DNA of 64,000 nucleotides from a virus. Its lineage: Duplodnaviria; Caudoviricetes. Every line of letters begins with the position of its first letter. Positions within the stretch are counted from its first letter, which is position 1. The position numbers were made by a program, and so were the translations under genes. The stretch covers positions 96,001 through 160,000 of IMG/VR virus record IMGVR_UViG_3300021426_000063; one strand, written 5' to 3'. The notes beneath the pieces were generated by a model, which did not search any database, had not been told where the DNA came from, and was given only the letters and a program-made list of their open reading frames with translations. Positions 1 to 64,000 of this stretch are shown here, piece by piece.

Positions 1-500
1 GCAGAAACCTTGTCTTCAAGTTTGTTCATTGAAGAGTTGGTAACAACAGAAGTCTTTGGTGTAGGAACACCTGCTGCTTTGAGCTTCTTATAAGTGATGA
101 ACTTATCTTCACAGTTGTCAATTGCTTCAAGGGTGTTCAATACAAAGAATCCATCATTCTGGAGTTCTGTAAGGAAATCCCTTGACTCAATGTTCTTCAA
201 AACTGTTCTTCTTGGAACAATGATAGTGTTATTTGGGTTGAGGGTGAAGGTCTTTTTAGTTTCACCATTCTCAACCACATTATAATTATCATCAGCACCC
301 TTTGAGATAGTTGAAGAAGAAGGATCAATAGTAACCATATTCAATCCTGCTTTCCTTGCAGCATCCTCAAAGAAAAACATTGAATTAGAACTCTTTGTAG
401 TCTTTTCTGCCCTTGATGACAAGAAAACAACCTGGATGTTCTTTGCCTTCTTACTCTCATTAAGAGGTGCATATCCTTTACTTGAATATTTCATAATCAT
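1..500 (-). CDS. RimK-like ATP-grasp ligase (partial, runs off window start)
   Basis: Not in ORF track; manual translation MIMKYSSKGYAPLNESKKAK...FFVLNTLEAIDNCEDKFITYKKLKAAGVPTPKT matches the RimK N-terminal pattern N..AI..C.DK..T...L..AGVPTPKT; late promoter at 523-531. Confidence 0.75.
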   Translation of the reverse strand, partial: MIMKYSSKGYAPLNESKKAKNIQVVFLSSRAEKTTKSSNSMFFFEDAARKAGLNMVTIDPSSSTISKGADDNYNVVENGETKKTFTLNPNNTIIVPRRTVLKNIESRDFLTELQNDGFFVLNTLEAIDNCEDKFITYKKLKAAGVPTPKTSVVTNSSMNKLEDKVS

Positions 501-560: not shown

Positions 561-858
561 ATTGAAGTAAATTGTTTTCTTTACAATATTCTAAAAACTG
601 TTCCTTATCCATAATTTGTGTCTCAAGTTCAGGTCCATAATCAAACTCATCCAACACTTCCTGTTCTGAATTCATTATCCCCCTCACATCAAGATACTTA
701 CCATTCCTGATAAGACCACAATGAACAAGAGCATAATCTTCAATATCATAATCATAATCAGTCATCACAAATATCTTATCACCAGGTCTATAGTTATCAA
801 GAACCCACTGATGACACTGACCATGAAGGTATTCATCATATGACAGTATATTATTCAT
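559..858 (-). CDS. Hypothetical protein, possible Cys-His-Asp (papain/transglutaminase-like) fold
   Basis: 99-aa ORF; GQCHQW...LVHCG...YLDVRG; leader NILSYDEYL. Confidence 0.55.
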   Translation of the reverse strand: MNNILSYDEYLHGQCHQWVLDNYRPGDKIFVMTDYDYDIEDYALVHCGLIRNGKYLDVRGIMNSEQEVLDEFDYGPELETQIMDKEQFLEYCKENNLLQ

Positions 859-1703
859 TAAAAGAAATCTCCTCTACTTACTCCATAGTAGTTATAATAA
901 TCTTTTATCTCTCCTTCAATGTCTTCCTTTTCATATTCATTATACAATCCCTCCCAAAACTCTTTTCCAAAATCAGGATCTTCAATGAACTCCTTTACAT
1001 CAAAACAATCATCATCATTACATACTACAATCTCAGTAGGTGTGAATATAGCATCAAAAAGTTCAACACCATATTTTACAATAGGTTCATATGATGAAAC
1101 CTTATAATCTATGACAATAGTATAATTTTGATCATTGAAATCAACATCAAACTCATAAGTTAATGTCTTATTACTATCTGGTTCTATTTCACCAGCATTC
1201 TCATCAATATTACTTTCAAAATATGACCTGATTAGTTTTGTAAATTCTTCAACATCACCAAGATTGCTCTTGAATTCTGTAAGACATCTACTGTGTATAA
1301 GTTCATCCTCCTTATCTCTCAAATGCTTTACAGCACTATCCTCTGCATACTTTGGACTATCATTGAATTCATTACCAGGGTGTCTTTCATCCCTTCTTTT
1401 CTTGAATTCCTTTTGGAAGTCATCATCCTTTGCATAATAACTCAATGTCTCTATATTACCAAGGACAAGATAAGAACCATCTTCAAGTTTTATATGATAA
1501 TGTGGTGTATCATTATCCTTGAAATTATCCAATTCATTATAATCTAATGCAACACCAAGGATTTCAGAATCATCCAAGTCATATAAAAACACATTATCAG
1601 CAGAATATTCTGGCATACCATGCTGTTGAAGTATGTCTTTCAATTTACTACTTTTAAAACTCTCATTCAAAAGTGTATATTCTTCAAATTTAAATACTTT
1701 CAT
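858..1703 (-). CDS. Hypothetical acidic protein with capsid-targeting-like leader
   Basis: 281-aa ORF starting MKVFKFEEYTLLNES; abuts the next gene. Confidence 0.65.
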   Translation of the reverse strand: MKVFKFEEYTLLNESFKSSKLKDILQQHGMPEYSADNVFLYDLDDSEILGVALDYNELDNFKDNDTPHYHIKLEDGSYLVLGNIETLSYYAKDDDFQKEFKKRRDERHPGNEFNDSPKYAEDSAVKHLRDKEDELIHSRCLTEFKSNLGDVEEFTKLIRSYFESNIDENAGEIEPDSNKTLTYEFDVDFNDQNYTIVIDYKVSSYEPIVKYGVELFDAIFTPTEIVVCNDDDCFDVKEFIEDPDFGKEFWEGLYNEYEKEDIEGEIKDYYNYYGVSRGDFF

Positions 1704-1718
1704 ATCTATATTAAGTTA

Positions 1719-4130
1719 TTATATTCTATTTATATTATTATATGTCCTGTCAACATAATCTCTGAAATCATCTACATAATCATAAACCTTTGCATTTGGA
1801 GAATGTACACAAGGTTCATCTTCCTTTCTGAACTTCTTGGCCTTCTTCTTTTTCTTCTTAATCTGTTTCAGGAATGTTGTATAAGGGGCAACCTGATGAT
1901 AGACTATTCCAGTTGGAGATGGAAGGTCACCAGATCCAGGTTCACCATTGGGACCTGGGAAATAAGCAGCACCCATTCCACCAACATTGGCAGGGGTTGC
2001 TCCACCTGGGACACCATCACATTCAACAATCTTCTTACCATCCATAACACCAGGTGAAAAGATTCTTTTCTTTATATATGTATCCATATCTAATCTATCC
2101 CAATTTTTCTTGATGTATTCAATTATCTTATCATAATCTCCAACATTTGTGAACAAATTCTCATCCCTTCTTTTTTCAATATACTTTATAAGACCTTCAC
2201 AATCATTCTCCTTTCTACAAGATGGTGGTGGAGGAACAATATGATTTTGTATATAATGTGCTCTTTCTCTCCTACAATACATCAATGTAAATTGATTTAA
2301 TGAATTAATCTCCTTATCAGAAAGAATTTCATCTTCAATTCTGTTATCTTCACCAGAACCCCTTCTCATCATATCTCCCCAGGCAGATTCATTCATACCA
2401 TTTTCCTTTTCTTTTTCTTCTTCTTTAATAAATCCCTCAATATCTTTCTCAATATCATCAGTCCAATGACTGTCTATGTATTTGATGATATTCACAATAT
2501 TTATATCCTCATTGAATTTGAGATGTTCCCTAACACATTTACAAAACTTCTCCCTGCTGAACTTCTCATTATCCCAAACAACCCTTATTGCAAATTCATT
2601 CATAGAATCTACAATAGCATCCATATCTGTTTGAGTTATCTCATCCTCTTTCCTTATCTGTTCACCAGAACCCCTTCTCATCATATCTCCCCAGGCAGAT
2701 TCATTGACACCTTTCTCCTTAAGATATGTTTCTATCTGTGTTTCAAAATCACTATCATTCCACATATCATCAGGATCATAATACTTCTCTTCATCAGTAA
2801 GAACCTGATTTATTTCATACATCAAATCATCCTTATATGGGTATGAATCCCACCAATCATTAAGTGTTTTTTCTATTGATTTTCCGGGTTCTTTTACAAA
2901 TCCAAGTTTTTTAATTTTTTCTTCCTCTTTGTTTATTTCTTCATTGACTTGTGATTCATAATTCTTACCTTTATTCCAATTTGCCTCAACATATATTACA
3001 ATATCTTTAACCATTTTCTTACCAACATTCTCATGAGTTTTTGAATCATACATATTATTCTTATAACTCTTACTCATAAACTCTTTGAAGTCATCAATAG
3101 AATTCTTATACAAATCCTCATATACAATTTTTTTGGCAAAACATCTAATATCAGCTTTAACACTATTAAGAAAACCTGTATCTTCTCCCCTAACTTCCTC
3201 ACCAGAACCTCTCCTCATCATATCACCCCAGGCAGATTCATTCATATTATTTTTCCTTTTGATTTGTTTTTCTAATGGTTTCTCTACCCTATCCAAAATA
3301 AAATCAAGAACTTCAATGAAGAAACTATTTGACATAGAGACTTCTGCTTGATTTTTTGGATATATGTTTACATTCTCAACCCCAAATCTATTGGTTTTTA
3401 ATTGTATCAAATATTTTTGTTTTAATTCCCTCTCACAATCAAGTAACTCAAAGACATTCTTTTGTGTTGTAATATGAGATTCATCATAGTACAAATAACT
3501 TAAATATCCAGCAGTATCTTCAAAAAGACAAATAGTCAAATAACCTTCATCAACATATATAGTAGCATCATATGGTGCTATACTTTCATAATTTGACCTC
3601 AAATAATCACATAGTTCTTCAAGTCCAAAGTTATTTATATCATCTTCTTCCCTGATTTCTTCACCAGAACCTCTTCTCATCATATCACCCCAGGCTGATT
3701 CAGTCACAAGTATATTATCAATATTATCTAAAAAGAAATCAATGACATCTATATATGTCTGATTTGTACAAGTACCATCTTTTTCTTTTATAATCCTTCT
3801 ATTTACACTAGGATTTTCTACTTTAAACCTTTCTGATAATTTATCAAAGAAAGACATACTTATTTTTTCTTTTGACCAGGATAATAAAACATGAAGTAAT
3901 CCACCATTACCATCAGGTTTTAAGATTAATGATATATTAGTTAATACATCAACATAAATTTCATTATACCAAGTCTTGTCTAAATAAAATACTTTCTTAT
4001 CATACCTGGATTTAATATAATCATAAAGACCATCCAAATCAAGAAGATTCACACCATCCTCTGTTCTGATGTTTTCACCAGAACCTCTTCTCATCATATC
4101 ACCCCAGGCTGATTCACTAATCTTTCTCAT
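1719..4130 (-). CDS. Putative polyprotein of internal virion proteins with five ESAWGDMMRRGSGE motifs
   Basis: 803-aa ORF with motif at 4074-4115, 3660-3701, 3198-3239, 2661-2702, 2349-2390; late promoter at 4136-4144. Confidence 0.75.
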   Translation of the reverse strand: MRKISESAWGDMMRRGSGENIRTEDGVNLLDLDGLYDYIKSRYDKKVFYLDKTWYNEIYVDVLTNISLILKPDGNGGLLHVLLSWSKEKISMSFFDKLSERFKVENPSVNRRIIKEKDGTCTNQTYIDVIDFFLDNIDNILVTESAWGDMMRRGSGEEIREEDDINNFGLEELCDYLRSNYESIAPYDATIYVDEGYLTICLFEDTAGYLSYLYYDESHITTQKNVFELLDCERELKQKYLIQLKTNRFGVENVNIYPKNQAEVSMSNSFFIEVLDFILDRVEKPLEKQIKRKNNMNESAWGDMMRRGSGEEVRGEDTGFLNSVKADIRCFAKKIVYEDLYKNSIDDFKEFMSKSYKNNMYDSKTHENVGKKMVKDIVIYVEANWNKGKNYESQVNEEINKEEEKIKKLGFVKEPGKSIEKTLNDWWDSYPYKDDLMYEINQVLTDEEKYYDPDDMWNDSDFETQIETYLKEKGVNESAWGDMMRRGSGEQIRKEDEITQTDMDAIVDSMNEFAIRVVWDNEKFSREKFCKCVREHLKFNEDINIVNIIKYIDSHWTDDIEKDIEGFIKEEEKEKENGMNESAWGDMMRRGSGEDNRIEDEILSDKEINSLNQFTLMYCRRERAHYIQNHIVPPPPSCRKENDCEGLIKYIEKRRDENLFTNVGDYDKIIEYIKKNWDRLDMDTYIKKRIFSPGVMDGKKIVECDGVPGGATPANVGGMGAAYFPGPNGEPGSGDLPSPTGIVYHQVAPYTTFLKQIKKKKKKAKKFRKEDEPCVHSPNAKVYDYVDDFRDYVDRTYNNINRI
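2349..4115 (-). repeat. Five dispersed in-frame 42-bp repeats encoding ESAWGDMMRRGSGE
   Basis: GAATCNGCCTGGGGWGATATGATGAGRAGRGGTTCTGGTGAR read directly; spacings 414, 462, 537 and 312 nt. Confidence 0.95.
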
Positions 4131-4135
4131 ACTAG

Positions 4136-4144
4136 TATTTATGA
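4136..4144 (-). promoter_or_regulatory. Putative late promoter TCATAAATA
   Basis: Motif immediately upstream of ATG 4130, next to a terminator hairpin (~4146-4174). Confidence 0.7.
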
Positions 4145-4159
4145 AAAAAGGTGGGGAAA

Positions 4160-5026
4160 TTACTCCTCACCTTTCAGGATTTTATCCAATGTATTGTCTG
4201 GGATTTTGTCTATATAAATCTTCTCATAAGTACCATCATCCTTCAACCAGACAAGAACTCTATCTATAATCTTTATACCTATTGATTCAAGCATCCTCTG
4301 GTAGATATTGAACTGTAATGTATAGTGCGAAAGCGGTTCATCAATAAACTTTGACATACATCCTGTCATCATAACACCATTGGTTCTTGAAAATTCCTTT
4401 ATCAAAGACTTGTTTGTTTTCCAGTCTCCAATGACATATCCATCCTTATCGCTGTCATAGAAAAGAAGGTCACAGGTACCACAAATCTTTTCTGCCCATT
4501 CCAAATACTGTGTTGACAACTTGAACTCTGCTCCAACAGGATGGAGGTTCTTCTCCAGTTCATCATAGAACTTCTTCACAGCATCCTCCTTTGGATAGGT
4601 AGAAACCATTGTGTTATACTCCTCAATGTACTGTGGTTTGTTCTGCTCACAGATAAGTTCAGGATGACCACACAACAGATTGGTATAAGATTCTCCAAAC
4701 TCATGTGTCCTGGTACCAGAGATTGTTGCTTTCAGGTTATTGAGTTTCCAATCCCTCTGTACATCCTCTTTCCTCTTACCCCATTTGAGTGCATAATCTG
4801 TGGCCTTCTGTTCCCAGTCAACAACTGGTTCATACCTTTTTATAACATTACTTACAGGAATATATTCATCTTCACCAATGAAATACTGATGCCCTTCTTC
4901 AAGAAACTTGATATTACCAAACTTGTTTCCTATCAAATCCCTACATTCATTGACCTTATTATTCACAAGGTTCTTATCTATCACCTTCTTTTCAAAGGAG
5001 TTATTGAAAATATCATCAAAATCCAT
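4160..5026 (-). CDS. PD-(D/E)XK (Cas4/RecB-like) exonuclease
   Basis: GTRTHEFGE...EFKL...ICGTCDLL...IGDWKTN...YTLQFNIY; ATG start at 5026 preferred. Confidence 0.75.
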   Translation of the reverse strand: MDFDDIFNNSFEKKVIDKNLVNNKVNECRDLIGNKFGNIKFLEEGHQYFIGEDEYIPVSNVIKRYEPVVDWEQKATDYALKWGKRKEDVQRDWKLNNLKATISGTRTHEFGESYTNLLCGHPELICEQNKPQYIEEYNTMVSTYPKEDAVKKFYDELEKNLHPVGAEFKLSTQYLEWAEKICGTCDLLFYDSDKDGYVIGDWKTNKSLIKEFSRTNGVMMTGCMSKFIDEPLSHYTLQFNIYQRMLESIGIKIIDRVLVWLKDDGTYEKIYIDKIPDNTLDKILKGEE

Positions 5027-5030
5027 ATCC

Positions 5031-5300
5031 CTACAATTTACCAATTATCATTTCAGGAGTAATAACAACATACTCCACATCTTCAACCTTCATATAGATA
5101 CCTCCCATATCAGCAAAGGCAATGTGGTCTCCTTTCTTCCATTCATTTTCAAGGCCAACACTGTCGATCACACCAGTATATGGTTCTGGTATCTCATATA
5201 CATTCTTTGATTGCTGTTCAGGAAGAATCAAAGGAGAATTCTTCTCATCCTTATCCTTCACCAAAATAACAACATCATTTACTGCCTGGAACTTTATCAT
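5031..5300 (-). CDS. GroES-like co-chaperonin
   Basis: 89 aa; FQAVNDVVILV...LILPE...GVIDSVG...KKGDHI...VEYVVI..EMIIG matches the Cpn10 pattern. Confidence 0.75.
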   Translation of the reverse strand: MIKFQAVNDVVILVKDKDEKNSPLILPEQQSKNVYEIPEPYTGVIDSVGLENEWKKGDHIAFADMGGIYMKVEDVEYVVITPEMIIGKL

Positions 5301-6358
5301 AATCTGTCTCTATATTCAATCATTTTCTCCTGTACACTCTTCAACATCTCTTCTGTCAAATCCTGCTTTTGAAGAAAATCTTCCATATATTCATCACTAC
5401 TCTTGGCATCATTAAAATTAAATTCCCCGGTTGTATCCAGTTCCTGCATCACATTATCACCAATGGGTTGAAAACTTCTGTAACTACCCTTCAATATGGA
5501 ACATAAATCATCAAAATTACACTTTGTGATGTCACTGTTCTTCATATGAAGTTCAATCCTGTTGTTCTTCCACCTTTCTTTCAGTTCACCAACAGTCATA
5601 TTAAGAATATCATAAATGTTCTCCTTCATATATTTTGGTGTTACTGTGTTCTCAATGAACCTTGTTTCACCAGTCTTGATGTCAAGTACAGTTATACCCT
5701 TTGGATTATCCCTATCACCCCTATCCTTATGATAAGGATTTCCAATATAATGAATGTTCTTATTATCCTGTCTGATGTGGATGTGACCAGCATAAACCTG
5801 TGCAGTCTTAAAGTCTCCACCCTGAACACCACCAGAAACATTGATTTTTACACCAGACCTGTTAGATACCTGTGAACCATTGATTTCAAGATGACCAAAG
5901 ATATAATCCACATTCACCCCAGCAAGTATCTGCTTCTCCTTTTCTGGATCCTCCACCCAGGGGTTGAAAAGACAGGATTTTCCATCAATCACATCTACTT
6001 CCGGTGTATAATACACCTTCACATGTGGGATATACTTCAACATATTGATGGAAGTGATGTCATTGATAGACTTCTTCATAATATCATGGTTACCAACAGT
6101 TATCCTGATGTCATTGAAGATTGCAGAAAATTCTTCAAAAAGTTTGATTGTTCTGTATATGGTATTCAATCCAATAGTAGAACGGTTGTCAAACACATCA
6201 CCACAATGAATGAGAATATCTTCCTTCCCTGCTTCCTTCTTCATAAGAGGTATGACAACATCTTCAAAGTAACCTATATAATCATTAAGCCACTCTTCCT
6301 CATCACCCTTATATCCAAAGTGAGTATCTGCTATAAGCCAAATCTTTCTATTTCCCAT
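5297..6358 (-). CDS. Recombination endonuclease subunit (T4 gp47/Mre11/SbcD-like)
   Basis: Metallophosphoesterase motifs ADTHFG, GDVFDNR, VGNHD, FGHLE, AGHIH. Confidence 0.85.
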   Translation of the reverse strand: MGNRKIWLIADTHFGYKGDEEEWLNDYIGYFEDVVIPLMKKEAGKEDILIHCGDVFDNRSTIGLNTIYRTIKLFEEFSAIFNDIRITVGNHDIMKKSINDITSINMLKYIPHVKVYYTPEVDVIDGKSCLFNPWVEDPEKEKQILAGVNVDYIFGHLEINGSQVSNRSGVKINVSGGVQGGDFKTAQVYAGHIHIRQDNKNIHYIGNPYHKDRGDRDNPKGITVLDIKTGETRFIENTVTPKYMKENIYDILNMTVGELKERWKNNRIELHMKNSDITKCNFDDLCSILKGSYRSFQPIGDNVMQELDTTGEFNFNDAKSSDEYMEDFLQKQDLTEEMLKSVQEKMIEYRDRL

Positions 6359-6364
6359 ACAATA

Positions 6365-6375
6365 AATATAACAAC
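6365..6375 (-). promoter_or_regulatory. Putative middle promoter (variant GTTGTTATATT)
   Basis: Variant of the recurrent TTTGTTATATT motif, upstream of the gp47-like gene. Confidence 0.55.
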
Positions 6376-6404
6376 AAAGGTGGTAAATTAATCACCACCT
6401 TTGT
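6374..6404. terminator. Hairpin terminator
   Basis: acaaaggtggt-aaattaatc-accacctttgt inverted repeat. Confidence 0.6.
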
Positions 6405-6406
6405 AA

Positions 6407-6676
6407 TTATTCATTGTTTAACTGTAATCTATCAAGTTCAGCTGCAATAAATGCTCCAACTTTCTTGAGGTTTTCAACATCTCCATCATTATGAAAATAC
6501 TTCAAATCAAATGGCCAATCAGATGTTGATTCACAACCCATTGCAGCCTTTAAATAAGTAAGTGCTGCCCTGAGTAATTCATTGTTCTGATATCCACAAT
6601 CATGTTGAGGAGTATATCCATGCTTGGAAATCTGCTTCTCCCTCTCCTCTGCAATAAGTTCAATACCTGTCTTCAT
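6407..6676 (-). CDS. Conserved phage hypothetical protein
   Basis: IAEEREKQISKHGYTPQHD...GAFIAAELDRL resembles a widespread small phage protein family. Confidence 0.65.
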   Translation of the reverse strand: MKTGIELIAEEREKQISKHGYTPQHDCGYQNNELLRAALTYLKAAMGCESTSDWPFDLKYFHNDGDVENLKKVGAFIAAELDRLQLNNE

Positions 6677-6682
6677 AATAAA

Positions 6683-7492
6683 TTAAATTAAACCCCATTC
6701 TGCAAAGGCCTCAAAGCCACCAATAGAGTCAATATATCCCTTGGCGACATTCACAATTTCAGAATATGGAATACCATTCACTTCAGTATCTCCAATAGCA
6801 CAGCAATAAGTCTGGGTCTTTCCAGTCCTCTGTGCCTCAAGGAAAGCATAGATGTTCACTGATACATCAGCCTTGGAGATGTCCTTACCATGGAGACCAC
6901 CACCAGTGACAGACCTACCCATATCAGAACCAAGTTTCCTGTTGGTTGCACCAGAATCTACATTAGGACCACCAGTCCAGTCACCAAGAGGATTCACAAT
7001 GACTGTATAATGAGGATAACTTGTCTCTAACCACTCTTTCAACATAGTAGAATCAGCATTACTCTGACAAATAATAATCTTATTGTTCTTCTCATCCAGG
7101 ATGTATTTACCATCAGTAGGATATGCATTATAGATGTCCTGTGCAATCTGACTGAGTTCCATTTCCTCACCATCAAGAGGTTCACCCTTAAAGATACCAT
7201 TGTCACCACAACGGATTGCACCATCCTGGTTTTCAGCAAGATGAACATCCTGTGGAACAGCAAGAAGGTTTACTTTCAAACCATCACCAGCAATCCTCTT
7301 GACAATAGGTTCAACATTCTCATTAGTGAATTCAAAACTTGACTCTGTAATGATAGTACAGAGACCATGTCCAATAAGCACTTCAACAGCAACCTTTGGA
7401 GTTTCCTGATTGGCATATGCAAGGTCAACAAGAGCACCAGCAATCCTGTCCGCTACTTTATCAGGATGATTAGGATTAACTTTTTCAAACAT
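6683..7492 (-). CDS. metK: S-adenosylmethionine synthetase (compact phage type)
   Basis: EKVNPNHPDKVADRIA, GDNG, DSGATNRKL, GGGLHGKDISKAD motifs. Confidence 0.9.
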   Translation of the reverse strand: MFEKVNPNHPDKVADRIAGALVDLAYANQETPKVAVEVLIGHGLCTIITESSFEFTNENVEPIVKRIAGDGLKVNLLAVPQDVHLAENQDGAIRCGDNGIFKGEPLDGEEMELSQIAQDIYNAYPTDGKYILDEKNNKIIICQSNADSTMLKEWLETSYPHYTVIVNPLGDWTGGPNVDSGATNRKLGSDMGRSVTGGGLHGKDISKADVSVNIYAFLEAQRTGKTQTYCCAIGDTEVNGIPYSEIVNVAKGYIDSIGGFEAFAEWGLI

Positions 7493-7532
7493 ACTATATA
7501 AGATTAAAAATTAACATTCTTTTACAATCTTA

Positions 7533-7555
7533 AATATAACAAAACCTCATAAATA
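7533..7555. promoter_or_regulatory. Divergent promoters: TTTGTTATATT (- strand, metK) and TCATAAATA (+ strand, SAWGD cluster)
   Basis: aatataacaaa 7533-7543; tcataaata 7547-7555. Confidence 0.7.
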
Positions 7556-7577
7556 TTATATCACAATTTTTTAACAA

Positions 7578-8879
7578 ATGAAGAAATTAAGTAAAATAGA
7601 TGAATCCGCCTGGGGTGATATGATGAGAAGAGGTGCAGGAGAAACCAGAAGAAGAGAAGATGGTGTCAAGGTTCACACTTGTATTGATGTAGATATCTAT
7701 CTAATAAATGTTTCTGATTCTTATTATGAAGAACTCATAAAAGAAATCCTTGATTATAATAACAGTTCTGTTGAACATAAAGTTGCAATCTTGAATACTA
7801 TAGACAAGGCATATTCTACAGAAGAAATGAAAAATATCAGGGCATTTGAAGCTCCTTATACTTATCTAATCTATGATGGAGAACATGGTACAGACCTGAT
7901 TGCTGAATTCTGGACATATGATGAGATGAAAGACTTTGACTTGGATGACTTTGAAGACAGAGTACCTGAAGAAGATTATATATCAATCTGTAAAGGTATT
8001 GCAACCAAGTTGAAAGAAGTTGGTGGAGACATTGAATACCTACCAAGATTTAAAGGTAGTTTTATTGCAACAAAATCTAATAATATATCTGATTATGATA
8101 GTGATTATGTCTTACAGTTAATTGATGAATCAGATGTATATGATTGGGAAATACAATATACTGACAAATATGGTGAAGGAAGTACTGCCACCTGCTTGGA
8201 TGATTATAAAGAAAGTATGATTGACACATTCCCTGAATTAAATGATGTTGTTTTCATCACCTGGTCATTCAACAATTATGCTTGTAACATTGGTATCCCT
8301 ATCACAGCAACAACAGTGAAGAACTTCAAGAAATATAAAGAATATACTAAAAACTGGTTTACAGTAGATGAAATTGATGAATCTGCCTGGGGTAATATGA
8401 TGAGAAGAGGTTCTGGTGAAAAAGAAAGAAGAGAGGATATCATAAACTCCAATGTGAAAGATATAAAACCTGTTGACTTGGGATTATCTGTTCTCTGGGC
8501 AGACAAGGATCTTGAAATTAATGATGAGTATGAATTTACCATTGATGAGATTGCTGATTATACACCAGATGGATGGAGAAGACCAACACAAAAAGAGGCA
8601 GATGAATTATTACATAATACTAAAAAATCAGTAGACCAAGATTTATCTCCAAAAACATTTAAGAGAATCTTCAAATTATCAAACAATGGTGTTGATCTTT
8701 ATTTCAGTTGTAAAAATCTTAAAGAAAAAGCTGAATATTGGGAACTCGATAAAGGTAATATGGATAAATATTGGAATACATTTGTTCTTGAAGAATCTGG
8801 ATCATTTGTTGCACATTCAGCATATCAAATAGCAAAACCAGATGAAAAACATAGAGTGAGATTTGTTAGAGAAAAATAA
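7578..8879 (+). CDS. Two-module SAWGD-motif protein; C-terminal module DUF1566/CLec-like
   Basis: Motifs at 7602-7643 and 8379-8420; second module has PVDLGLSVLWA...WRRPTQKEADELL...VRFV. Confidence 0.75.
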   Translation: MKKLSKIDESAWGDMMRRGAGETRRREDGVKVHTCIDVDIYLINVSDSYYEELIKEILDYNNSSVEHKVAILNTIDKAYSTEEMKNIRAFEAPYTYLIYDGEHGTDLIAEFWTYDEMKDFDLDDFEDRVPEEDYISICKGIATKLKEVGGDIEYLPRFKGSFIATKSNNISDYDSDYVLQLIDESDVYDWEIQYTDKYGEGSTATCLDDYKESMIDTFPELNDVVFITWSFNNYACNIGIPITATTVKNFKKYKEYTKNWFTVDEIDESAWGNMMRRGSGEKERREDIINSNVKDIKPVDLGLSVLWADKDLEINDEYEFTIDEIADYTPDGWRRPTQKEADELLHNTKKSVDQDLSPKTFKRIFKLSNNGVDLYFSCKNLKEKAEYWELDKGNMDKYWNTFVLEESGSFVAHSAYQIAKPDEKHRVRFVREK

Positions 8880-8881
8880 GT

Positions 8882-9514
8882 ATGATTAAGATAGGAATAG
8901 ATTACAGTCTCATATCCCCGGCGATATGTGTTTATAAAGATGGAGAGTATTCTTTCATCTCCTTCTTTGATGATTATGGTAAGAACTGGAAGGCTGGTAA
9001 GATAAAAGCATTCAACTATCATAAGGAACTCTCTGAATTTATGGAGATGAATCCTTATACAAGACATATTGAAAAGAAAGATTACAGGGAAGAGCAGAAG
9101 ACAAAGATGGCTGCTGCGAAGATGATCGCACATAAAATCTCCAACAGATTGGTTGAAATTGTTGGTGATGAAGAGGTCATCATTGGACTTGAAGGATTCT
9201 CTTATGGAAGTATCTCTTCATCTACACTGGACTTGGCACTGTTCAACTCATTCCTCAGAATTAAACTTCTGGAGGACTTTGGTGAGGATTGTCTTGTCAT
9301 CATCTCTCCAACTGAAGGTAAGAAAAACCTTTCTGGTAAGGGTAATGCCAAGAAGGAAGATATGATCCAGGCTTTCATTGAGAACAGAACCAATGACCCT
9401 GACATTGAAAGATGTCCTTTCTGGAAGTACTGTAAAGAAAATGAATTAGATTATAAAAACATAAAACCTATTGATGACCTTGTGGATTCATATGGTATAT
9501 TGAGAAGCATATGA
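8882..9514 (+). CDS. RuvC-like (RNase H fold) resolvase/nuclease
   Basis: IGIDYSL..PAICV, LEGFSYGS, GKGNAKKEDM, DDLVDSY. Confidence 0.75.
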   Translation: MIKIGIDYSLISPAICVYKDGEYSFISFFDDYGKNWKAGKIKAFNYHKELSEFMEMNPYTRHIEKKDYREEQKTKMAAAKMIAHKISNRLVEIVGDEEVIIGLEGFSYGSISSSTLDLALFNSFLRIKLLEDFGEDCLVIISPTEGKKNLSGKGNAKKEDMIQAFIENRTNDPDIERCPFWKYCKENELDYKNIKPIDDLVDSYGILRSI

Positions 9515-10005
9515 AAAAGTTAAGTAAAATAGATGAATCTGCCTGGGGTGATATGATGAGAAGAGGCTCAGGTGAAACTGTAAGGGAGGAAGATAAGTTC
9601 AATCCTGATTATGTTGACTTTGGTGAAAACACAACAGTCTATTGGGCAATTGATAATCTTGAGATTGATGGTGAGGTGAAATTTTATTTTAATGATGTAA
9701 AGGATTACAACAACAATGGTTGGAGACTTCCTACTGTTGATGAAGTGAATCAATTGAAATGGAATATAAGGATTTCTTGGTATGATGGTTGTAAACATCT
9801 GAGATTTAATGATGGAAATGAATTAAGACTCAATATCAATGGGAGTGGGGGATTCCATATGTGGACAAAAGAAATTAATCCTAAATTTCCAACAGGAGCA
9901 TTTTCATATGGATTTGATAATATGGATAATTTCAATATCAGTAGTTTCAACATATCCATCAACAAACTCTTTGTTTTCCTTGTAAAAGATAAAAAACTTA
10001 TTTAA
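9511..10005 (+). CDS. SAWGD-motif protein with DUF1566/CLec-like domain
   Basis: MKKLSKIDESAWGDMMRRGSGE; YVDFG..VYWA...GWRLPTVDE...MWT...VFLV. Confidence 0.75.
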   Translation: MKKLSKIDESAWGDMMRRGSGETVREEDKFNPDYVDFGENTTVYWAIDNLEIDGEVKFYFNDVKDYNNNGWRLPTVDEVNQLKWNIRISWYDGCKHLRFNDGNELRLNINGSGGFHMWTKEINPKFPTGAFSYGFDNMDNFNISSFNISINKLFVFLVKDKKLI

Positions 10006-10008
10006 GAA

Positions 10009-10584
10009 ATGAAAAAGTTAAGTAAAATAGATGAATCCGCCTGGGGTGATATGATGAAAAGAGGTTCTGGTGAGATTGTAAGGAAGGAAGATGATCTCAC
10101 AAACATAAAATCCCTGAAACCACTTGATATGGGAGGATCTGTTTTGTGGGCAGATGATGACCTTTCATTAAAAGATGAAGATGACTGTTATTTTACATTT
10201 GATGAAGCATTTGAACTTATTAAAAACAGTGATTGGAGACTCCCAACACTTGAAGAAGTTGCAGAACTTGATGATATTTATATAAAAGGTTCATTCTGGG
10301 AAAATGATGATAGATTTGTATTTGATGGATTTCCACATCAATTAGTATTCTTCAAGAAAGGTTTAATATATACATCTGCAAGTGATAAACCTATAGATGA
10401 AGATTATTATTATTGTTGGACATCATCTCTTTCTCCAAATAATAGTAAATATGCAAATATATTTACTTTTAATAATGGTATACCTTGTCACACACCATTA
10501 AATGATCAACATAATGTCAATAATAGTGTAACACAAGATACAACTAATGGTAAACTCTGTGTAAGATTAGTAAAAGATAAATGA
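10009..10584 (+). CDS. SAWGD-motif protein with DUF1566/CLec-like domain
   Basis: Same leader (MMKR variant); LDMGGSVLWA...WRLPTLEE...CWTSS...CVRLV. Confidence 0.75.
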   Translation: MKKLSKIDESAWGDMMKRGSGEIVRKEDDLTNIKSLKPLDMGGSVLWADDDLSLKDEDDCYFTFDEAFELIKNSDWRLPTLEEVAELDDIYIKGSFWENDDRFVFDGFPHQLVFFKKGLIYTSASDKPIDEDYYYCWTSSLSPNNSKYANIFTFNNGIPCHTPLNDQHNVNNSVTQDTTNGKLCVRLVKDK

Positions 10585-10585
10585 T

Positions 10586-11134
10586 ATGAAGAAGTTAAGT
10601 AAAATAGATGAATCCGCCTGGGGTGATATGATGAGGCGAGGTTCCGGTGAAGACATCAGAAAGGAAGATGATTTAACAAATCTTAAAGAAATTGTTCCAA
10701 TTGATATGGGTGTGTCTGTCCTTTGGGCAGATAGAGACCTGGAGTACAAAATTGATGATACCTGTTATTTAACATATGAAGATGCTGAAAGTATTTTCAA
10801 AAATACAGGATGGAGATTTCCAACAAAGGAAGAGACATTAGAACTTTTTAAGTATACCAGAATTATGAAAAACACAGATAATGTGTGTATTCTCGAAGGA
10901 GACTTTGATGGAGGACCACAACTTATATTTAATAAAAATGGTTATAAACTTGGAAATTCTGACCAATTATTTAAAGAATATTGTTATTGTTGTTGGACAT
11001 CTACAGAATACAAACCTTCTCCAGAAGCATATTATATGATGAACATCCAACAATATCAAAGTCATATTCCTATGCATAAAGAAAATAGAGTACCTGCCAG
11101 ACTGGTTAAAGACAAAGAAAAAAGAGAGGATTAA
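10586..11134 (+). CDS. SAWGD-motif protein with DUF1566/CLec-like domain
   Basis: Same leader; IDMGVSVLWA...WRFPTKEE...CWTST...ARLV. Confidence 0.75.
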   Translation: MKKLSKIDESAWGDMMRRGSGEDIRKEDDLTNLKEIVPIDMGVSVLWADRDLEYKIDDTCYLTYEDAESIFKNTGWRFPTKEETLELFKYTRIMKNTDNVCILEGDFDGGPQLIFNKNGYKLGNSDQLFKEYCYCCWTSTEYKPSPEAYYMMNIQQYQSHIPMHKENRVPARLVKDKEKRED

Positions 11135-12074: not shown

Positions 12075-13274
12075 TTATTTTTTATTCCAATCTATATCTT
12101 TTAACCATTTATTTTTCCTTGCTATTTCATATAAATATGAATAATTATCTCTGAATTCTTTTATTGAATCATACTGTTTAACAATTTCTAAAACATTTTC
12201 TTTATTCCATTTCTTACCAGTTTTTGATTCTTCTAACCAAGGCATCTGATTAAAAAGATTATTTCTTCTTACATATGCATATCCACAAGGACATTTTAAT
12301 CTAAACTCATTTCTTGTTTTATATTGTTTAGATTCATTAATTACCATATCATCTGTCCACATAATATGTTTTGGTTTTAACCAGGTCATCTCATCTAACC
12401 AACCATTTTTCAATGAAATATCATATGCAGTTCCATTGCCAAGATAAAATTCTCTTCTACTATTATATTTTTTAGATTCATTAATAACCATATCCTTATT
12501 CCAATATTTAAGTTTTGGTTTTAACCAGGTCATCTCATCTAATAATTTATATTTCAGAGCACAAGTATATGCTGTTGATGAATTCTTTTTGAAATCATTT
12601 TTATTATCATATTTTTTAGATTCATTTATCACAGCATCTTTTGTCCATTTATTAGATTTACCTCCAATAGAACTAGAGAATTCACCAGTCTTTGCAACAT
12701 TTAACAAATGATATCCCATATTCTCATATGTTTTACTCCATTCATTTTCTTTTATCTTTGCATCATTAACTGATAAATTTTCTTCAAGATAAATTGGTTC
12801 TGGAACATTTTTACACATATTTGTAAAATATTTAAAAACACTTGTTTGACAAATATGATTTTTATATATACCTGTCTTATGTGTATTATGTCTTGTTATT
12901 TTATCTCTTGTTAATCCAACATATGCAACTTTATTATCATCATCAATATAAACATATATTGAATATGGATACTTCATATCTTTTTCTTTTAACCAGGTTA
13001 ATTCTTTCAACCAACCATTTTTTCTTGCTGATTCATATGCACAAAAAGAATGTTTTCTGAAATCACTTATATATTCATATTTTTTAGATTCATTAAAAAC
13101 ATTTTCCTTGTTCCATTTATGTAGTTTATATTTTAACCAAGTAAATTCTTTCAACCAACCATTATCCTTTGATATTTTATAAAGACCTCCATAGTCTTTT
13201 CTCAAATCATTAAAATACTCATATTTTTGAGCAATTTCAATTACCTTTTCTTTTGTCCATTTATTGTATTTCAT
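12075..13274 (-). CDS. GIY-YIG homing endonuclease-like protein with tandem ~47-aa repeats
   Basis: YSIYVY...AYVGLT...R..H core flanked by W(T/N)K..V..E.KKY....F.....AY..A.KNGWL repeats; more AT-rich than neighbours; late promoter 13295-13303. Confidence 0.8.
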   Translation of the reverse strand: MKYNKWTKEKVIEIAQKYEYFNDLRKDYGGLYKISKDNGWLKEFTWLKYKLHKWNKENVFNESKKYEYISDFRKHSFCAYESARKNGWLKELTWLKEKDMKYPYSIYVYIDDDNKVAYVGLTRDKITRHNTHKTGIYKNHICQTSVFKYFTNMCKNVPEPIYLEENLSVNDAKIKENEWSKTYENMGYHLLNVAKTGEFSSSIGGKSNKWTKDAVINESKKYDNKNDFKKNSSTAYTCALKYKLLDEMTWLKPKLKYWNKDMVINESKKYNSRREFYLGNGTAYDISLKNGWLDEMTWLKPKHIMWTDDMVINESKQYKTRNEFRLKCPCGYAYVRRNNLFNQMPWLEESKTGKKWNKENVLEIVKQYDSIKEFRDNYSYLYEIARKNKWLKDIDWNKK

Positions 13275-59190: not shown

Positions 59191-59222
59191 AAAGGAGAGT
59201 GGTATTCACTCTCCTCTTTTTT
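59191..59222 (-). terminator. Terminator after dnaK
   Basis: ggagagtg-gtatt-cactctcc with flanking A/T tracts. Confidence 0.65.
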
Positions 59223-61056
59223 ATTGTGGATTTCCTTCTCCTTGTGGTTGTTCACCTGTATTCTTATACAGTTCCTCTGAAATCTTATACCAGGATTGAG
59301 CAAGGATTTCCATACAAGACTTACAAGCATCAACATCCTTCTGTTCATAAGCATCCTTCAATGCTGTGAGACCATTCTCAAGTTCAGATTTCTGTTCATT
59401 TGTAATTTTGTCTCCATACTCTTCAATCTGTTTCTCTGTTCTGAAGATTGTTCCTTCCGCTGCATTGAGAGTCTGAACCCTTTCAAGTTCCTTCTTGTCG
59501 GCCTCAGCATTTGCTTCAGCTTCCTTTTTCATCCTCTCAATCTCTGCATCACTCAAACCAGAACTACCTTCAATCCTGATTGACTGCTGTTTGCCTGTAC
59601 CCTTATCCTTTGCAGATACAGAAAGGATACCATTGGCATCAATATCAAAGGTAACTTCGATCTGAGGAACACCCTTCCTGGCAGGAACAATACCATCAAG
59701 ATGGAAGATACCAAGCTGCTTGTTATCCTTTGCCATTGGTCTTTCACCCTGGAGAACTCTGACCTCAACACTTGGTTGATTATCAGCAGCAGTGGTGAAC
59801 ACCTCTGTCTTTGTAACAGGAATGGTTGTATTAGCTTCAATGAGCTTGGTAAACACACCACCAAGAGTCTCAATACCAAGAGATAGTGGAGTAACATCCA
59901 AAAGAAGAATGTCATTCATACCTTTCTCACCAGCAAGGATAGCTCCCTGAATGGCAGCACCAGTTGCAACAGCCTCATCAGGATTGACAGACTTATTAGG
60001 AGTCTTACCAAAGATTTTTGCAATTGCATCCTGTACAGCAGGAATCCTGGTGGATCCACCAACAAGAATGACCTCATCAACCTCTGATGTCTTTACCTTT
60101 GACTTCTTCACACAAGAATTACACTTGTCAACAATCCTCTTGATAAGAGAATCAGACATCTGTTCAAACTTTGCCCTGGTCAATGTCTTCACAAGATGGA
60201 TAGGTTTGTTATCAACATTTGCAATATAAGGAAGATTGATGTCAGTACTTGTAGAAGTAGAGAGTTCAATTTTGGCCTTTTCTGCATCAGCCTTCAATCT
60301 CTGCATTGCCATAGGATCACCAGTAAGGTCAACACCATAATCTGCCTTTGCTTCACTTACCAACCAGTCAATGATGACCTGGTCAAAATCATCACCACCA
60401 AGATGTGTATCACCATCAGTAGCCTTTACCTCAAAGACACCATCAGCAATCTCCAACATAGTGAAGTCAGAAGTACCACAACCAATATCAGTCACAATGA
60501 TCTTCTGTTCTTTCTCTGTGTTGATACCATAAGCAAGAGCAGCTGCAGTTGGTTCATTGATAACCCTGACCACATTAAGACCAGCAATCTCGCCGGCATT
60601 CTTAACAGCCTGTCTTGCTGTGTCATCATAATAAGCCGGACAGGTGATGACAGCATCCTTCACTTCCTCACCAAGATAATCCTCTGCAATCTTCTTCATC
60701 TTCTGAAGAATCATAGCAGACAATTCCTCCGGTGAATAGAGTTTACCATTGATATCAACACGGGGCATATCATTTGGACCCTGTACAACCTTGTACTGTG
60801 CCCTCTTGACCTCATCTGTTACATTACTATACTTCTCACCCATAAACCTTTTGATGAATGATACAGTCTCCTGTGGCAACATAATTGCCTGTCTCTTGGC
60901 TGCATCACCAACCTTGATTTCATCCTTTGAGAATGAGATGACAGAAGGTGTAGTTGCCTTACCTTCTGAATTGATAATTACTTTTGGCTGGCCTCCCTCC
61001 ATTACAGCAACACAGGAAAAACCAGTACCTAAATCAATACCTACAATTTTACCCAT
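59221..61056 (-). CDS. dnaK: Chaperone DnaK (Hsp70)
   Basis: [67 protein letters not shown]; promoter 61134-61144. Confidence 0.97.
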
Positions 61057-61153: not shown

Positions 61154-61849
61154 CTATTCCTCTTCACTTTTTTCTTTTTTATCTTTGTCCTTATCTTTAT
61201 CCTTTTCTTTTTCTTCCTTTTCTGGTTCTTCTTCAGATTTTTCTTTCTCTTTATCCTTGTGTTTAATCTTTTCTATCTTCTCATCATCCTCTTTCCTTTC
61301 CTTCTTCTCATCCTCTGATTCATCATAGATAGGACTCTTGTACTCATGTTCTTCCTCATCCTCTGATTCTTTCTTCTTTGAAACAGATTTCTTTACTTCT
61401 TCCTCCTTCTCTTCTTCCTTCTCAATAGGTTTTGTCTTCTTTATTTCTTCATCCTCATCTTCTGTCTTGACAGGTTTTGATACTGGTTTAGAAACAGATT
61501 TTGTTGCTTTAGGAGTAGCAGATGGATCAACAGGCTTGATATTAAGAATCTTGATGAATGAATATGACCTGAAACTTCTCCACCCTTCCTTATCCAAATC
61601 ATAGTAAACCATCTGTTTCTCTGGTCTTGGACCACCACCCTTCAATGGTGGAAGATAATCTGGATGAAGAGTACCATGTGCAGTTCTTATTTCTCCATTT
61701 CTTTTCTTGAACTTGAATGTAATGATATTATCACGGAGTTCTCTTCTCATCCTTTTCCTGGCTGGCATATTGAGAACACCATGTACATCCTTCTTGAGTT
61801 TCTTCAAGCTGGATTCATTAATAATATAACTTCCAAAATCTAATATCAT
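61154..61849 (-). CDS. WYL_2/DUF2693-like Sm/SH3 domain protein with capsid-targeting-like leader and K/E-rich tail
   Basis: MILDFGSYIINES; FKFKKRNGEIRTAHGTL...YYDLDKEGWRSFR; ends KSEEE. Confidence 0.7.
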   Translation of the reverse strand: MILDFGSYIINESSLKKLKKDVHGVLNMPARKRMRRELRDNIITFKFKKRNGEIRTAHGTLHPDYLPPLKGGGPRPEKQMVYYDLDKEGWRSFRSYSFIKILNIKPVDPSATPKATKSVSKPVSKPVKTEDEDEEIKKTKPIEKEEEKEEEVKKSVSKKKESEDEEEHEYKSPIYDESEDEKKERKEDDEKIEKIKHKDKEKEKSEEEPEKEEKEKDKDKDKDKKEKSEEE

Positions 61850-63158: not shown

Positions 63159-63177
63159 AATAAAAAACTTTATAGAA

Positions 63178-63199
63178 TATTTATGACTACACATAAATA
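63178..63199. promoter_or_regulatory. Back-to-back late promoters
   Basis: tatttatga 63178-63186 (-) and cataaata 63192-63199 (+). Confidence 0.65.
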
Positions 63200-63204
63200 A
63201 TAAT

Positions 63205-64000
63205 ATGGAAAACATACTTGATTTTAATAATTATATTCTTGAATCAAAGAGTATTTATAAATTAGATAATGAGACTAAATCCAAACTTCTGGTCTTGGAT
63301 GAGAAGTATCATAAACTTATAGAAAAATTCCGTACGAAATATGTTGCACAGACTGTCAGTAACATCAAGGAAGAGTTTAACAAGTTTATGAATGCCAAAA
63401 ACCTTGGCCAGAAATATTATCCACAATTGGAAATAAAAAACTCTGAATATGATCAGAAGTTATATGATGGATTCCTTAATCTTATTGATGAGTTTGAAAA
63501 AATCAAAGACAGTTGTTATATTGCAAAGTTTTATCTTGAAAAACTCCATTCAATGAAAGGAAGTCTTGAGACCAGACAACATCTTGAAAATGGGGATTAT
63601 GAACCAGGAGAAAACCCGGTTGACAAAGAACTCTATAAAGAAGCTCTTAAATGTATAAAAGAACATCCATATAAGAAACCAGACTTCAAGGAAGATAGAA
63701 CAAATGACAGTGACACAGTATTAGAAGCAATTGAAGATGCATTGGATGAACTTGGATATGACTTTGATGTCCAGATAGACACAGGTATGCTCCCAAGAAT
63801 GAATGTTAAGATGGGTAGGGTAAATATAAATAAGGCAGCCAAGTTTTCTGATGAAGACATTGAAGGACTTATTGCCCATGAAATCAAAGGACATGTCGGT
63901 AGAAGATACTATGGAAAGAAGACTGGACTTTGGTTGTTTGCATATGGTACACAATCCAGTTCAACATATGATGAAGGTCTTGCAGTTTGGAATAGTTTAA
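63205..64000 (+). CDS. DUF1704/MATCAP-like (QEGLA-motif) zinc carboxypeptidase, partial
   Basis: Not in ORF track; MENILDFNNYILES... GLIAHEIKGHVGRR (HExxxH) ... YDEGLAVW, open to the window end. Confidence 0.75.
   Translation, partial: MENILDFNNYILESKSIYKLDNETKSKLLVLDEKYHKLIEKFRTKYVAQTVSNIKEEFNKFMNAKNLGQKYYPQLEIKNSEYDQKLYDGFLNLIDEFEKIKDSCYIAKFYLEKLHSMKGSLETRQHLENGDYEPGENPVDKELYKEALKCIKEHPYKKPDFKEDRTNDSDTVLEAIEDALDELGYDFDVQIDTGMLPRMNVKMGRVNINKAAKFSDEDIEGLIAHEIKGHVGRRYYGKKTGLWLFAYGTQSSSTYDEGLAVWNSL

Follow-up and report, generated by a model that had tools for sequence, protein, structure and literature searches.

We analyzed a 64,000-nt stretch of viral DNA (here called the window), which corresponds to positions 96,001 to 160,000 of the 233-kb IMG/VR record IMGVR_UViG_3300021426_000063 (G000), a metagenomic viral contig with no isolate. 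The window encodes a peptide of about 20 residues, h-x-E|SAWGDMMRRGSGExxRxED (h, hydrophobic; the bar marks the proposed cut), that heads unrelated protein modules and that we refer to as the tag. The evidence set out below indicates that the tag is almost certainly a real recognition element, disordered and acting at the level of the peptide. Tentatively, and with somewhat less than even confidence, we propose that it is an N-terminal label unmasked by the prohead protease on late proteins or by Met removal on early proteins, and that it is read in the infected cell. According to this model, the tag would be a common label on many unrelated accessory proteins from a clade of T4-like giant phages of the ruminant gut. 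Late carriers, made with a leader or as a polyprotein-like fusion, would be built into the prohead in the manner of T4 internal proteins; the S77 prohead protease would cut after each Glu, leaving every module with the label at its new N-terminus, and these modules would enter the next host with the DNA. Early genes would encode the label directly as Met-Ser-x-Trp, where removal of Met would give the same N-terminus. In the infected cell, the label would dock its carrier onto one co-evolving partner, and a single partner of this kind would account for the finding that each genome has one version, or dialect, of the tag and that dialects differ between close relatives. We infer cleavage, packaging, injection, Met removal, and the partner from the evidence that follows.

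A six-frame scan, a search of the whole 233-kb record, and an alignment agreed on a total of exactly 11 copies, every one of them within the window and at the positions given in a preliminary description of this DNA; the rest of the record has none. On the minus strand, where the Glu codon starts at the higher coordinate, the copies lie at 4074 to 4115 (ISE|SAWGDMMRRGSGE), 3660 to 3701 (VTE|S), 3198 to 3239 (MNE|S), 2661 to 2702 (VNE|S), 2349 to 2390 (MNE|S), and 62784 to 62825 (IGE|S). The plus-strand copies, with the Glu codon starting at the lower coordinate, lie at 7602 to 7643, 8379 to 8420, 9535 to 9576, 10033 to 10074, and 10610 to 10651, each preceded by IDE. The alignment also showed, as first described, that a hydrophobic-x-E triplet stands before every copy and that xxRx(E/D)(D/E) follows all 11. 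Twelve positions were invariant (E, S, A, W, G, M, M, R, G, G, E, and R), and substitutions were seen in the copies at 8379 (N for D), 7602 (A for S), and 10033 (K for R).

Six open reading frames (ORFs) carry these copies. The longest, an 803-aa polyprotein-like ORF (positions 1719 to 4130, minus strand), consists of the leader MRKISE and five tag-plus-module units, with the tag Glu at residues 6, 144, 298, 477, and 581. Its modules 1 and 2 are of an alpha/beta type beginning DVNLLD..Y, modules 3 and 4 are acidic and helical looking as judged from sequence, and module 5 bears a conserved tail. Four carriers on the plus strand begin with the leader MKKLSKIDE. The first (433 aa, 7578 to 8879) comprises the leader, the tag at 7602, a 257-aa module, the tag at 8379 (an AWGNMM variant), and a lectin-like module. 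In the other three, the leader and a single tag precede a lectin-like module (164 aa, 9511 to 10005; tag at 9535) or an Lcl_C-like module (191 aa, 10009 to 10584, tag at 10033, matching PF07603 at 7e-5, below the cutoff; and 182 aa, 10586 to 11134, tag at 10610). The sixth carrier (435 aa, 61851 to 63158, minus strand) has a domain of 109 to 128 aa in place of a leader: a basic N-terminal domain of 109 aa runs up to IGE|S and the tag, which a 324-aa acidic domain follows. This ORF originally spanned 61851 to 63215, with the tag at about residue 130, and its start was moved to 63158 because the homologs P0013 and P0083 begin MKFEFDH, as the corrected protein does. ESM Atlas feature searches with the 257-aa module and with the 435-aa carrier returned nothing above chance level. 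Metatranscriptome contigs from the source sample cover 9357 to 9526 and 9638 to 9798 with 0 to 1 mismatches; DNA carry-over is possible, and as contigs reveal neither start nor strand nor level, these were not counted as evidence of expression.

The tag proved to be widespread in related phages. When a profile of the 11 copies was searched against 1.84 billion representative proteins, at least 258 proteins or protein clusters matched at E < 1e-3, most of them with 2 to 7 copies. Detailed tag statistics were taken from the best 150 of the 258 proteins (385 tags from 149 proteins). The general form in this set is h-x-E-S-x-W-x-D-h-x-x-R-x-x-G-x-x-x-(R/K)-x-E-D; tags are spaced by a median of 154 residues, and the first tag falls within the first 20 residues in 132 of the 149 proteins. 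The stretches between tags clustered into many sequence families: the dominant one is the alpha/beta type beginning DVNLLD..Y (∼217 modules), and the others are a lectin-like family (34 modules), three acidic types whose sequences look helical, DUF285/BspA leucine-rich repeats in relatives, and several unassigned families. Modules of the lectin-like and alpha/beta types are found on their own as well as in fusions. Clustering and folding together thus upheld the first impression that the tag heads unrelated domains, among them a lectin-like Lcl_C fold, an alpha/beta saddle fold, and the acidic helical-looking types. In three polyproteins of relatives (P0004, P0014, and P0125), a GNAT acetyltransferase domain stands ahead of the first h-x-E|S tag.

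Structural models separated the tag from its cargo. With family alignments as input, AlphaFold2 was used to model the 182-aa carrier (overall pLDDT, 86.5) and, together with the tag on either side of it, the first module of the 803-aa ORF. The folds differ, and in both models the bodies scored a pLDDT above 90 and the tags, including the copy at 3660 to 3701, below 50, with only a short nascent helix over W-G-D-M-M-R-R. As modeled, the tag is a flexible linear peptide, and it is the most conserved sequence of these proteins: within one protein, tags are 80% identical, compared with 25% for module bodies of the same type. It thus resembles a short linear motif in being short, disordered when alone, and better conserved than its folded flanks. 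Such a combination of disorder and highest conservation is the signature of a recognition or processing element. The tag itself has no Pfam match. For the body of the 182-aa carrier, the top Foldseek match was the Lcl C-terminal domain (8q4e_A; probability 0.99, TM 0.53 by target, rmsd 4.0, E-value 0.12), with C-type lectin domains next in the list; PF07603 (Lcl_C/DUF1566) scored 23.5 and 23.1 bits against a curated cutoff of 34.9, and some homologs are precomputed as PF07603. The common alpha/beta module had the T4 MotA C-terminal "double-wing" as its top match by two methods: 1kaf (probability 0.94, TM 0.63) and, weakly, 6k4y_M (Z 7.6, rmsd 2.8, 97 residues), where a Z below 8 can reflect a mere common arrangement. 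Type III secretion chaperone-like and YbjN-like folds scored close to the MotA match. A DNA-binding role of this module was considered unlikely because the alpha/beta modules are acidic (median pI, 5.3).

Comparison with relatives revealed that the tag is uniform within a genome and variable between genomes. Relatives were located in IMG/VR by alignment of the conserved tail; four were fetched whole and others in part. Their capsid proteins are 79 to 97% identical to that of G000, yet each genome has its own tag version, and five relatives with capsid proteins 86 to 97% identical have five dialects. Where G000 uses SAWGDMMRRGSG, G001 uses S(T/V)WG(G/D)ILDRG(T/S)G, G002 uses S(V/I)W(A/S)D(I/M)H(K/R)RSNG, and G003 uses S(V/I)W(N/G)DIR(R/K)RGNG; G006 has a W-less form, SRFVDLINKKFTGE, in three genes, and G004 (96% complete) has almost no tag. 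At positions 7, 8, and 10, entropy was 2.4, 2.1, and 1.4 bits overall versus 0.08, 0.35, and 0.04 bits within a protein. The carriers are the most diverged proteins that these genomes share, with 34 to 36% identity against a median of 76%.

Uniformity of this kind could arise at the level of DNA, with a repeat of ∼60 nt serving as a recombination site that shuffles modules and is kept uniform by gene conversion, and with the peptide as a tolerated linker. Stretches longer than 60 nt are identical between some copies in L016, a few dialect positions use a single codon, and contigs from other samples break at tags, some of them joining tag to tag so that modules are skipped or inverted. Synonymous sites speak against this explanation: between the conserved residues they are near random in four genomes, with codon use close to expectation at most tag positions (in G002, for example, His is CAC 16 times and CAT 9 times, and AGA and AGG are mixed for Arg). 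Because synonymous sites are mostly randomized, the tag copies must be old, and selection on amino acids maintains their uniformity. In addition, nine tag residues are invariant across dialects that differ in DNA, single-module genes retain the tag at their start, and the contig joints are short sided and may be assembly artifacts. We regard a DNA-level cassette as extremely improbable. The contigs in question, from goat and bovine gut assemblies, end at window positions 2391 to 2393, 2676, 3236 to 3240, 3692, 4087, 7604 to 7629, 8388 to 8413, and 9546 to 9549; the few joins from tag to tag include one of 9989 with 10609, in which a lectin-like gene is lost, one of 3246 with about 4040, and some that invert sequence between the two clusters, and they represent either real module shuffling or assembly artifact. 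We also observed that the codon before TGG tends to end in C in other dialects (GTC, ATC) as it does in G000 (e.g., window 7608 to 7613). The CCWGG site made by GCC-TGG was dropped from consideration because it is neither avoided nor enriched genome-wide (468 observed versus ∼429 expected).

Promoter-like motifs of three classes were seen in these genomes (G000, G002, and G003; e.g., L097:723-754), and they divide the tag genes into two groups. The motif TCATAAATA occurs 17 times in the window versus 2.4 expected, including at 4136 to 4144 (minus strand, 5 nt upstream of the ATG of the 803-aa ORF), 7547 to 7555 (plus strand, ahead of the operon at 7578 to 11134), and 63178 to 63186 (minus strand, 20 nt upstream of the corrected start at 63158). 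G000 has 62 copies of the 8-mer CATAAATA, and for 52 of them an ORF starts no more than 80 nt downstream. Since this 8-mer is found ahead of the genes for the capsid protein, portal, protease, sheath, and baseplate wedge, the label of late promoter is reasonable; it is absent from the neighboring SbcD/exonuclease operon. As judged by this motif, the earlier statement that all carriers or their clusters lie downstream of late promoters holds, with CATAAATA upstream of every carrier. A second motif, TTTG-N17-23-TAnnTTTG, is the housekeeping promoter consensus of Bacteroidota (PMC12632263); it occurs 54 times in G002 and 80 times in G003, against ∼17 expected, and precedes arrays of small genes. 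A third, GTTATATTTAA, lies ahead of the SAM-synthetase-like/SbcD/exonuclease operon (window 4160 to 7492) and often follows a hairpin. In six genes (window 4130 to 4144 and G000:92698, 148770, 159205, 187766, and 192255), CATAAATA ends 4 to 5 nt before the ATG, compared with 19 to 37 nt at most others; this spacing would yield leaderless or near-leaderless late mRNAs.

A second form of the tag occurs in small genes of relatives (MS type; 13 in G002 and 3 in G003). Their products, of 55 to 173 aa, open with M-S-x-W, which leads into the full tag in the dialect of their own genome. They have neither leader nor h-x-E, and in-frame stops lie just upstream of the MS starts. Four such genes stand in a row on the metagenomic contig L097, which has the dialect of G000; the G000 lineage therefore has MS-type genes too, presumably in the missing part of the record. 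For every tag gene, we took the first motif met on going upstream and assigned promoter classes from motifs only. By this procedure, 35 of 36 carriers of the leader or internal type were late, and the exception, the start-corrected ORF, is late as well. None of the MS-type genes was late: 9 were early, 1 belonged to the third class, and 6 were unclassed. Counted by promoter, all 17 classifiable promoters of leader or internal genes were late, and the 6 of MS-type genes, with L097 included, were non-late (Fisher p = 1e-5).

In bacteria, the initiator Met is removed when Ser follows. Both routes, cleavage after Glu and Met removal, would thus yield the tag Ser as the first residue, which puts the tag's functional start at Ser and sets the tag apart from h-x-E; that the functional unit begins at a free Ser seems to us rather likely. 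Since early proteins carry the tag as well, the tag is not in itself a capsid address. The preliminary description had suggested that the peptide retained after cleavage could be an address for core docking or ordered ejection, and had named a presence in early genes as something that would speak against its interpretation. M-S-x-W tag genes do occur in early operons of relatives, behind host-type promoters, so that suggestion is not supported, and the job of the tag moves from the capsid to the infected cell, where the label probably acts.

Tag genes whose products are unable to meet the prohead protease would also be expected if the tag were never cut. In that case, the whole of h-x-E-S-x-W...ED would be a linear binding motif or connector for a cytoplasmic hub of the phage or host, the polyprotein-like ORFs would be multivalent scaffolds, and the MS forms would simply lack three dispensable first residues. 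The disorder and conservation of the tag suit a docking motif of this kind, as does the fact that multivalency (2 to 7 tags per protein) is common. However, it leaves unexplained why leader and internal forms occur only behind late promoters and MS forms never do, and why late single-module proteins need conserved leaders. Nor does it account for the match between the residues before the tag and the site at the end of the capsid propeptide, or for the appearance of the terminal unit of the polyprotein as a separate gene elsewhere (both described below). We consider an uncut docking motif unlikely.

The label model requires an enzyme that cuts after Glu, and G000 encodes a suitable candidate. 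A Peptidase_S77 (gp21-like) prohead protease at G000:62522-64459 matched PF03420 at 37 bits and phrog_207, head maturation protease, at 1.6e-36; no S78 protease was found in a search of G000. In an alignment to T4 gp21 (5JBL), its His (GELDHP) and Ser (ISSRAAG) fall opposite two Ala residues, which we take to be the mutated catalytic His and Ser of the crystallized gp21. The protease is fused to a long coiled-coil, scaffold-like region of ∼450 aa with roughly eight HQDYLAENMNKM-like repeats. T4 gp21 prefers Leu or Ile at P3. Across the 385 tags, P1 was Glu in 385 of 385, P3 was I/L/V/M in 89% and Thr in a further 10%, and P2 was Asn in 46%, rising to 65% at internal tags. Background E-(S/A/G) dipeptides in the same proteins had I/L/V/M at P3 in 19% and Asn at P2 in 4%. 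The capsid protein has LNE|S at residue 52, the expected end of a T4-type propeptide, and this site is invariant in six genomes.

Sites of the form [ILVMF]NE[SAG] were found 43 times in the G000 proteome versus 16.3 expected, and within the first 40 aa in 14 proteins versus 2.0 expected. Proteins with such an early site include the capsid protein, a 1,927-aa nuclease-helicase-methylase, a RimK-like ligase, and neighbors of the carriers, which suggests that a large set of enzymes may be loaded into the capsid. Further examples are a DUF2201-type metallopeptidase-like protein and a DUF285 plus MoxR-type AAA protein, and many have (K/D)xFxx(F/Y), like the T4 capsid-targeting sequence; the loci include window 858 to 1703, 61154 to 61849, and 63205 to 64362 and G000:34030-39813, 76070-78316, and 78402-81188. 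T4 internal proteins lose a leader of ∼10 residues, MKTYQEFIAE, and gp21 and its giant-phage relatives cut after Glu (PMC5694885, PMC8442874, PMC9958956). Before the first tags of the family we found leaders of the types MKKLSKIxE (77), MIPDFKTYIxE (35), MSKFYEHITE (5), and M..KSFKEFINE (5), of which the last three resemble the T4 leader. By inference, MRKISE and MKKLSKIDE in the window would likewise be capsid-targeting leaders. The earlier proposal of cleavage after Glu by a T4-type protease thus gains support in silico, as a prediction, from the S77 protease, the LNE|S site, the site statistics, the leaders, the late promoters, and the separate tail gene described next. Whether the prohead protease is the cutting enzyme, with the late carriers packaged as a consequence, we judge to be evenly balanced.

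The conserved tail of the 803-aa ORF (1719 to 2021, minus strand) behaves as a unit of its own. It follows IVE|C and comprises a stretch resembling the capsid N-arm (nt 1860 to 1988), a poly-Lys run, and a conserved C-terminus. The unit (∼100 residues) has a mean column identity of 76% across proteins of different dialects, and by our reading of the alignment (I/L)xE precedes it in 22 of 24 aligned fusions. A free-standing gene of 104 aa encodes it in G004 and G005, where it has a 10-residue leader of its own that ends INE. That such a unit can stand alone in one genome and be fused behind other modules in another is simplest to explain if the fusions are cut. The capsid-like stretch is 49% identical to residues 65 to 113 of the phage's own capsid protein, just past the predicted mature N-terminus (E 2e-7), and in G004 the capsid protein and the tail unit both change from GGMGA to GGMGD. 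This resemblance hints that the tail unit may associate with the capsid. A complex prediction for the capsid protein (aa 114 to 580) and the tail unit scored 0.01, which gives no verdict and counts neither for nor against binding.

A tail that resembles the capsid N-arm and changes with it could hold the 803-aa protein in the shell, and the tag could then be a dockerin-like anchor on the virion surface that fixes adhesin modules on the capsid or fibers, with dialects following a structural binding site. The Lcl_C-like fold and the DUF285/BspA repeats are of adhesin type, the carriers have late promoters, and they diverge as fast as receptor-binding proteins. Small MS-type proteins from early operons are unlikely virion parts, though, and the N-terminal part of the capsid protein is invariant among genomes of different dialects. 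Protease-type sites before the tags would also have no role outside the shell. We view a surface anchor as improbable.

The tag might instead control timing or turnover, with a protease or unfoldase of the host or phage recognizing it as a degron or processing signal and so setting how long accessory proteins last. In keeping with such a role, the tag is a terminal peptide that is disordered and has invariant charged residues, and chaperone genes lie close to the carriers: a phage-encoded DnaK/Hsp70 (611 aa, window 59221 to 61056) adjoins one carrier, and a GroES-like co-chaperonin (89 aa, 5031 to 5300) is near another. G000:1690-2619 encodes a second, weaker S77-like domain fused to dUTPase; a diverged paralog of the prohead protease has been described in giant phages (PMC5694885). 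Internal repeats are unexpected for a degron, however; a host reader would not require separate dialects in phages whose capsid proteins are 92 to 97% identical, and nothing links the tag specifically to a protease or chaperone. A turnover signal appears to us quite improbable.

Several observations weigh against the label model itself. The conserved part of the tag lies after the proposed cut, the reverse of the T4 leader, which is removed, and the commonest leader, MKKLSKIxE, is unlike the T4 capsid-targeting sequence. The promoter classes were assigned from motifs only. Cargo with Lcl_C lectin-like and DUF285/BspA domains is typical of surface adhesins rather than intracellular effectors. 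The h-x-E triplet could belong to the binding motif, with no need for the triplet itself at a true N-terminus. A few dialect-specific residues are encoded by one codon only: Ala is GCC in 11 of 11 tags of G000, where GCC makes up 11% of Ala codons, and Ser is AGT in 24 of 25 in G002. Parallel base changes (GTC to GCC, GGT to AGT) or short conversion tracts can produce this pattern, so short-tract gene conversion may contribute to the uniformity. As G004 is 96% complete and almost tag free, the tag system is dispensable. Finally, neither divergence ranking nor gene presence and absence identified a partner: when shared proteins were ranked by divergence, only the carriers themselves stood out, and the genes present in the tag-rich G002 and G003 and absent from the tag-poor G004 numbered 169, too many to be useful. 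All the same, we lean slightly toward the existence of a single co-evolving partner. A further reading, that the tag is a private addressing code in which a free Ser N-terminus marks dozens of accessory proteins for one receptor or compartment specified by the phage, with some of these proteins made early and others loaded into the capsid beforehand and unmasked by the prohead protease, the code drifting along with the receptor so that a phage lineage reads no dialect but its own, and cleavage serving as the activation step that yields a functional N-terminus, is possible but doubtful.

G000 has a CheckV completeness of 62% and a G+C content of 35%, and with translation table 11 the coding density is 96.6%. 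Outside the window it encodes a gp23-family capsid protein (PF07068, 1e-30), a gp20-family portal, and a tail sheath. In the collection of cultured and named phages, the nearest capsid proteins are those of a 462-kb uncultured phage (45% identity) and of Prevotella Lak megaphages (33%), and ∼3,400 related capsid proteins were found in public metagenomes. The stretch itself has been recovered from goat and bovine gut metagenomes in several studies. Among INPHARED phages, there was no nucleotide match to the stretch, no tblastn match to the 803-aa protein, and no cultured relative with the tag. The host-type promoter motifs suggest Bacteroidota hosts, and G000 is a T4-like giant phage whose hosts probably belong to the rumen Bacteroidota.

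Other genes near the carriers were recorded as side observations. A 589-aa RimK-like ATP-grasp ligase (PF08443, 1.7e-28) is encoded at G000:94731-96500 (its N-terminal part is window 3 to 500), L022:5980-7773, and L025:11625-13403; it has an N-terminal ...PLNES leader and a late-type promoter, adjoins the polyprotein or tail gene in G000, G004, and G006, and could be a modifier of either the tail unit or the tagged proteins. Within the late carrier operon lies a gene for a RuvC-like resolvase (phrog_159; window 8882 to 9514), the start and stop codons overlapping; by analogy, late expression of a resolvase fits a possible role in packaging like that of T4 endonuclease VII. Window 12075 to 13274 encodes a 399-aa protein with about six NKWTKE...WLKE..TWLK repeats around a central GIY-YIG-like segment (phrog_20046) and has a late-type promoter.

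Several known systems share parts of this arrangement. The processing logic is a variant of the head-maturation theme of T4 and phiKZ. Like the capsid-targeting and internal proteins of T4 (IPI to IPIII and Alt, cut by gp21), the tagged proteins belong to a phage with T4-type head genes and are encoded by late genes, with leaders that end in hydrophobic-x-Glu and in some cases resemble MKTYQEFIAE (PMC8442874, PMC5694885, PMC9958956). The outcome would be expected to be the same as well: the proteins would be carried in the head and delivered to the host. In T4, it is the leader that is conserved and cut away, which leaves mature proteins with nothing in common, whereas here ∼20 conserved residues would remain; the tag is also repeated in polyprotein-like ORFs, is dialect specific, and stands directly after Met in early-type genes. 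Ejection and inner-body proteins of phiKZ-like phages (SPN3US gp53 and gp54, phiKZ gp93 family) include paralogs that are only 34% identical and share identical N-terminal residues, taken as a sign of targeting (PMC5694885). Here too, head proteins form families of paralogs, and a related prohead protease cleaves them after Glu. In contrast to the tag, their conserved N-termini are removed propeptides of 15 to more than 100 residues, their cleavage motif is A/S/G-x-E rather than hydrophobic-x-E, and no shared post-cleavage peptide, tandem fusion, or early-gene counterpart has been described for them.

Viral polyproteins resemble the 803-aa ORF, with its five units, and its homologs, with up to seven, in that independent units in one ORF are split at a recurring site and occur as separate genes in relatives. 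They differ from the arrangement here, where a 20-residue label would be retained and the units are accessory and highly variable rather than core replication or structural proteins; we know of no such polyprotein in tailed phages. The cohesin-dockerin system also places a short module on many unrelated domains, with specificity that is uniform within a lineage and different between lineages, the pattern that one co-evolving receptor would be expected to produce. Dockerins, however, are folded calcium-binding modules of ∼70 residues and are usually C-terminal, unlike the disordered N-terminal tag of ∼20 residues, so that only the logic is alike. Polyvalent proteins and MuF-type polymorphic toxins are large, fast-evolving, multidomain phage proteins thought to be delivered with DNA, and they too combine a conserved part with variable cargo. 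They have large folded N-terminal domains and recognizable enzymatic or toxin domains, and no repeated linear tag. A full-text search of the literature found no paper with the tag strings, and our searches, which were limited, returned no description of a retained universal peptide, tandem polyprotein use, genome-specific dialects, or presence on early proteins.

The tag has practical uses. Its sequence can be used to catalog the fastest-evolving accessory proteins in an abundant clade of ruminant-gut giant phages, it is a natural peptide bait for finding partners, and, like the T4 capsid-targeting sequence, it might serve to load foreign proteins into large capsids. If tags need a free or modified N-terminal Ser, the co-traveling GNAT acetyltransferase would become relevant. 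If the label model is true, it would extend the T4 model of internal proteins by tandem polyprotein cargo, a universal post-cleavage peptide, and the same peptide on early proteins, and it would provide a rare example of an addressing tag that is private to a virus and has lineage-specific dialects. The tagged proteins may be proteins of host takeover or anti-defence.

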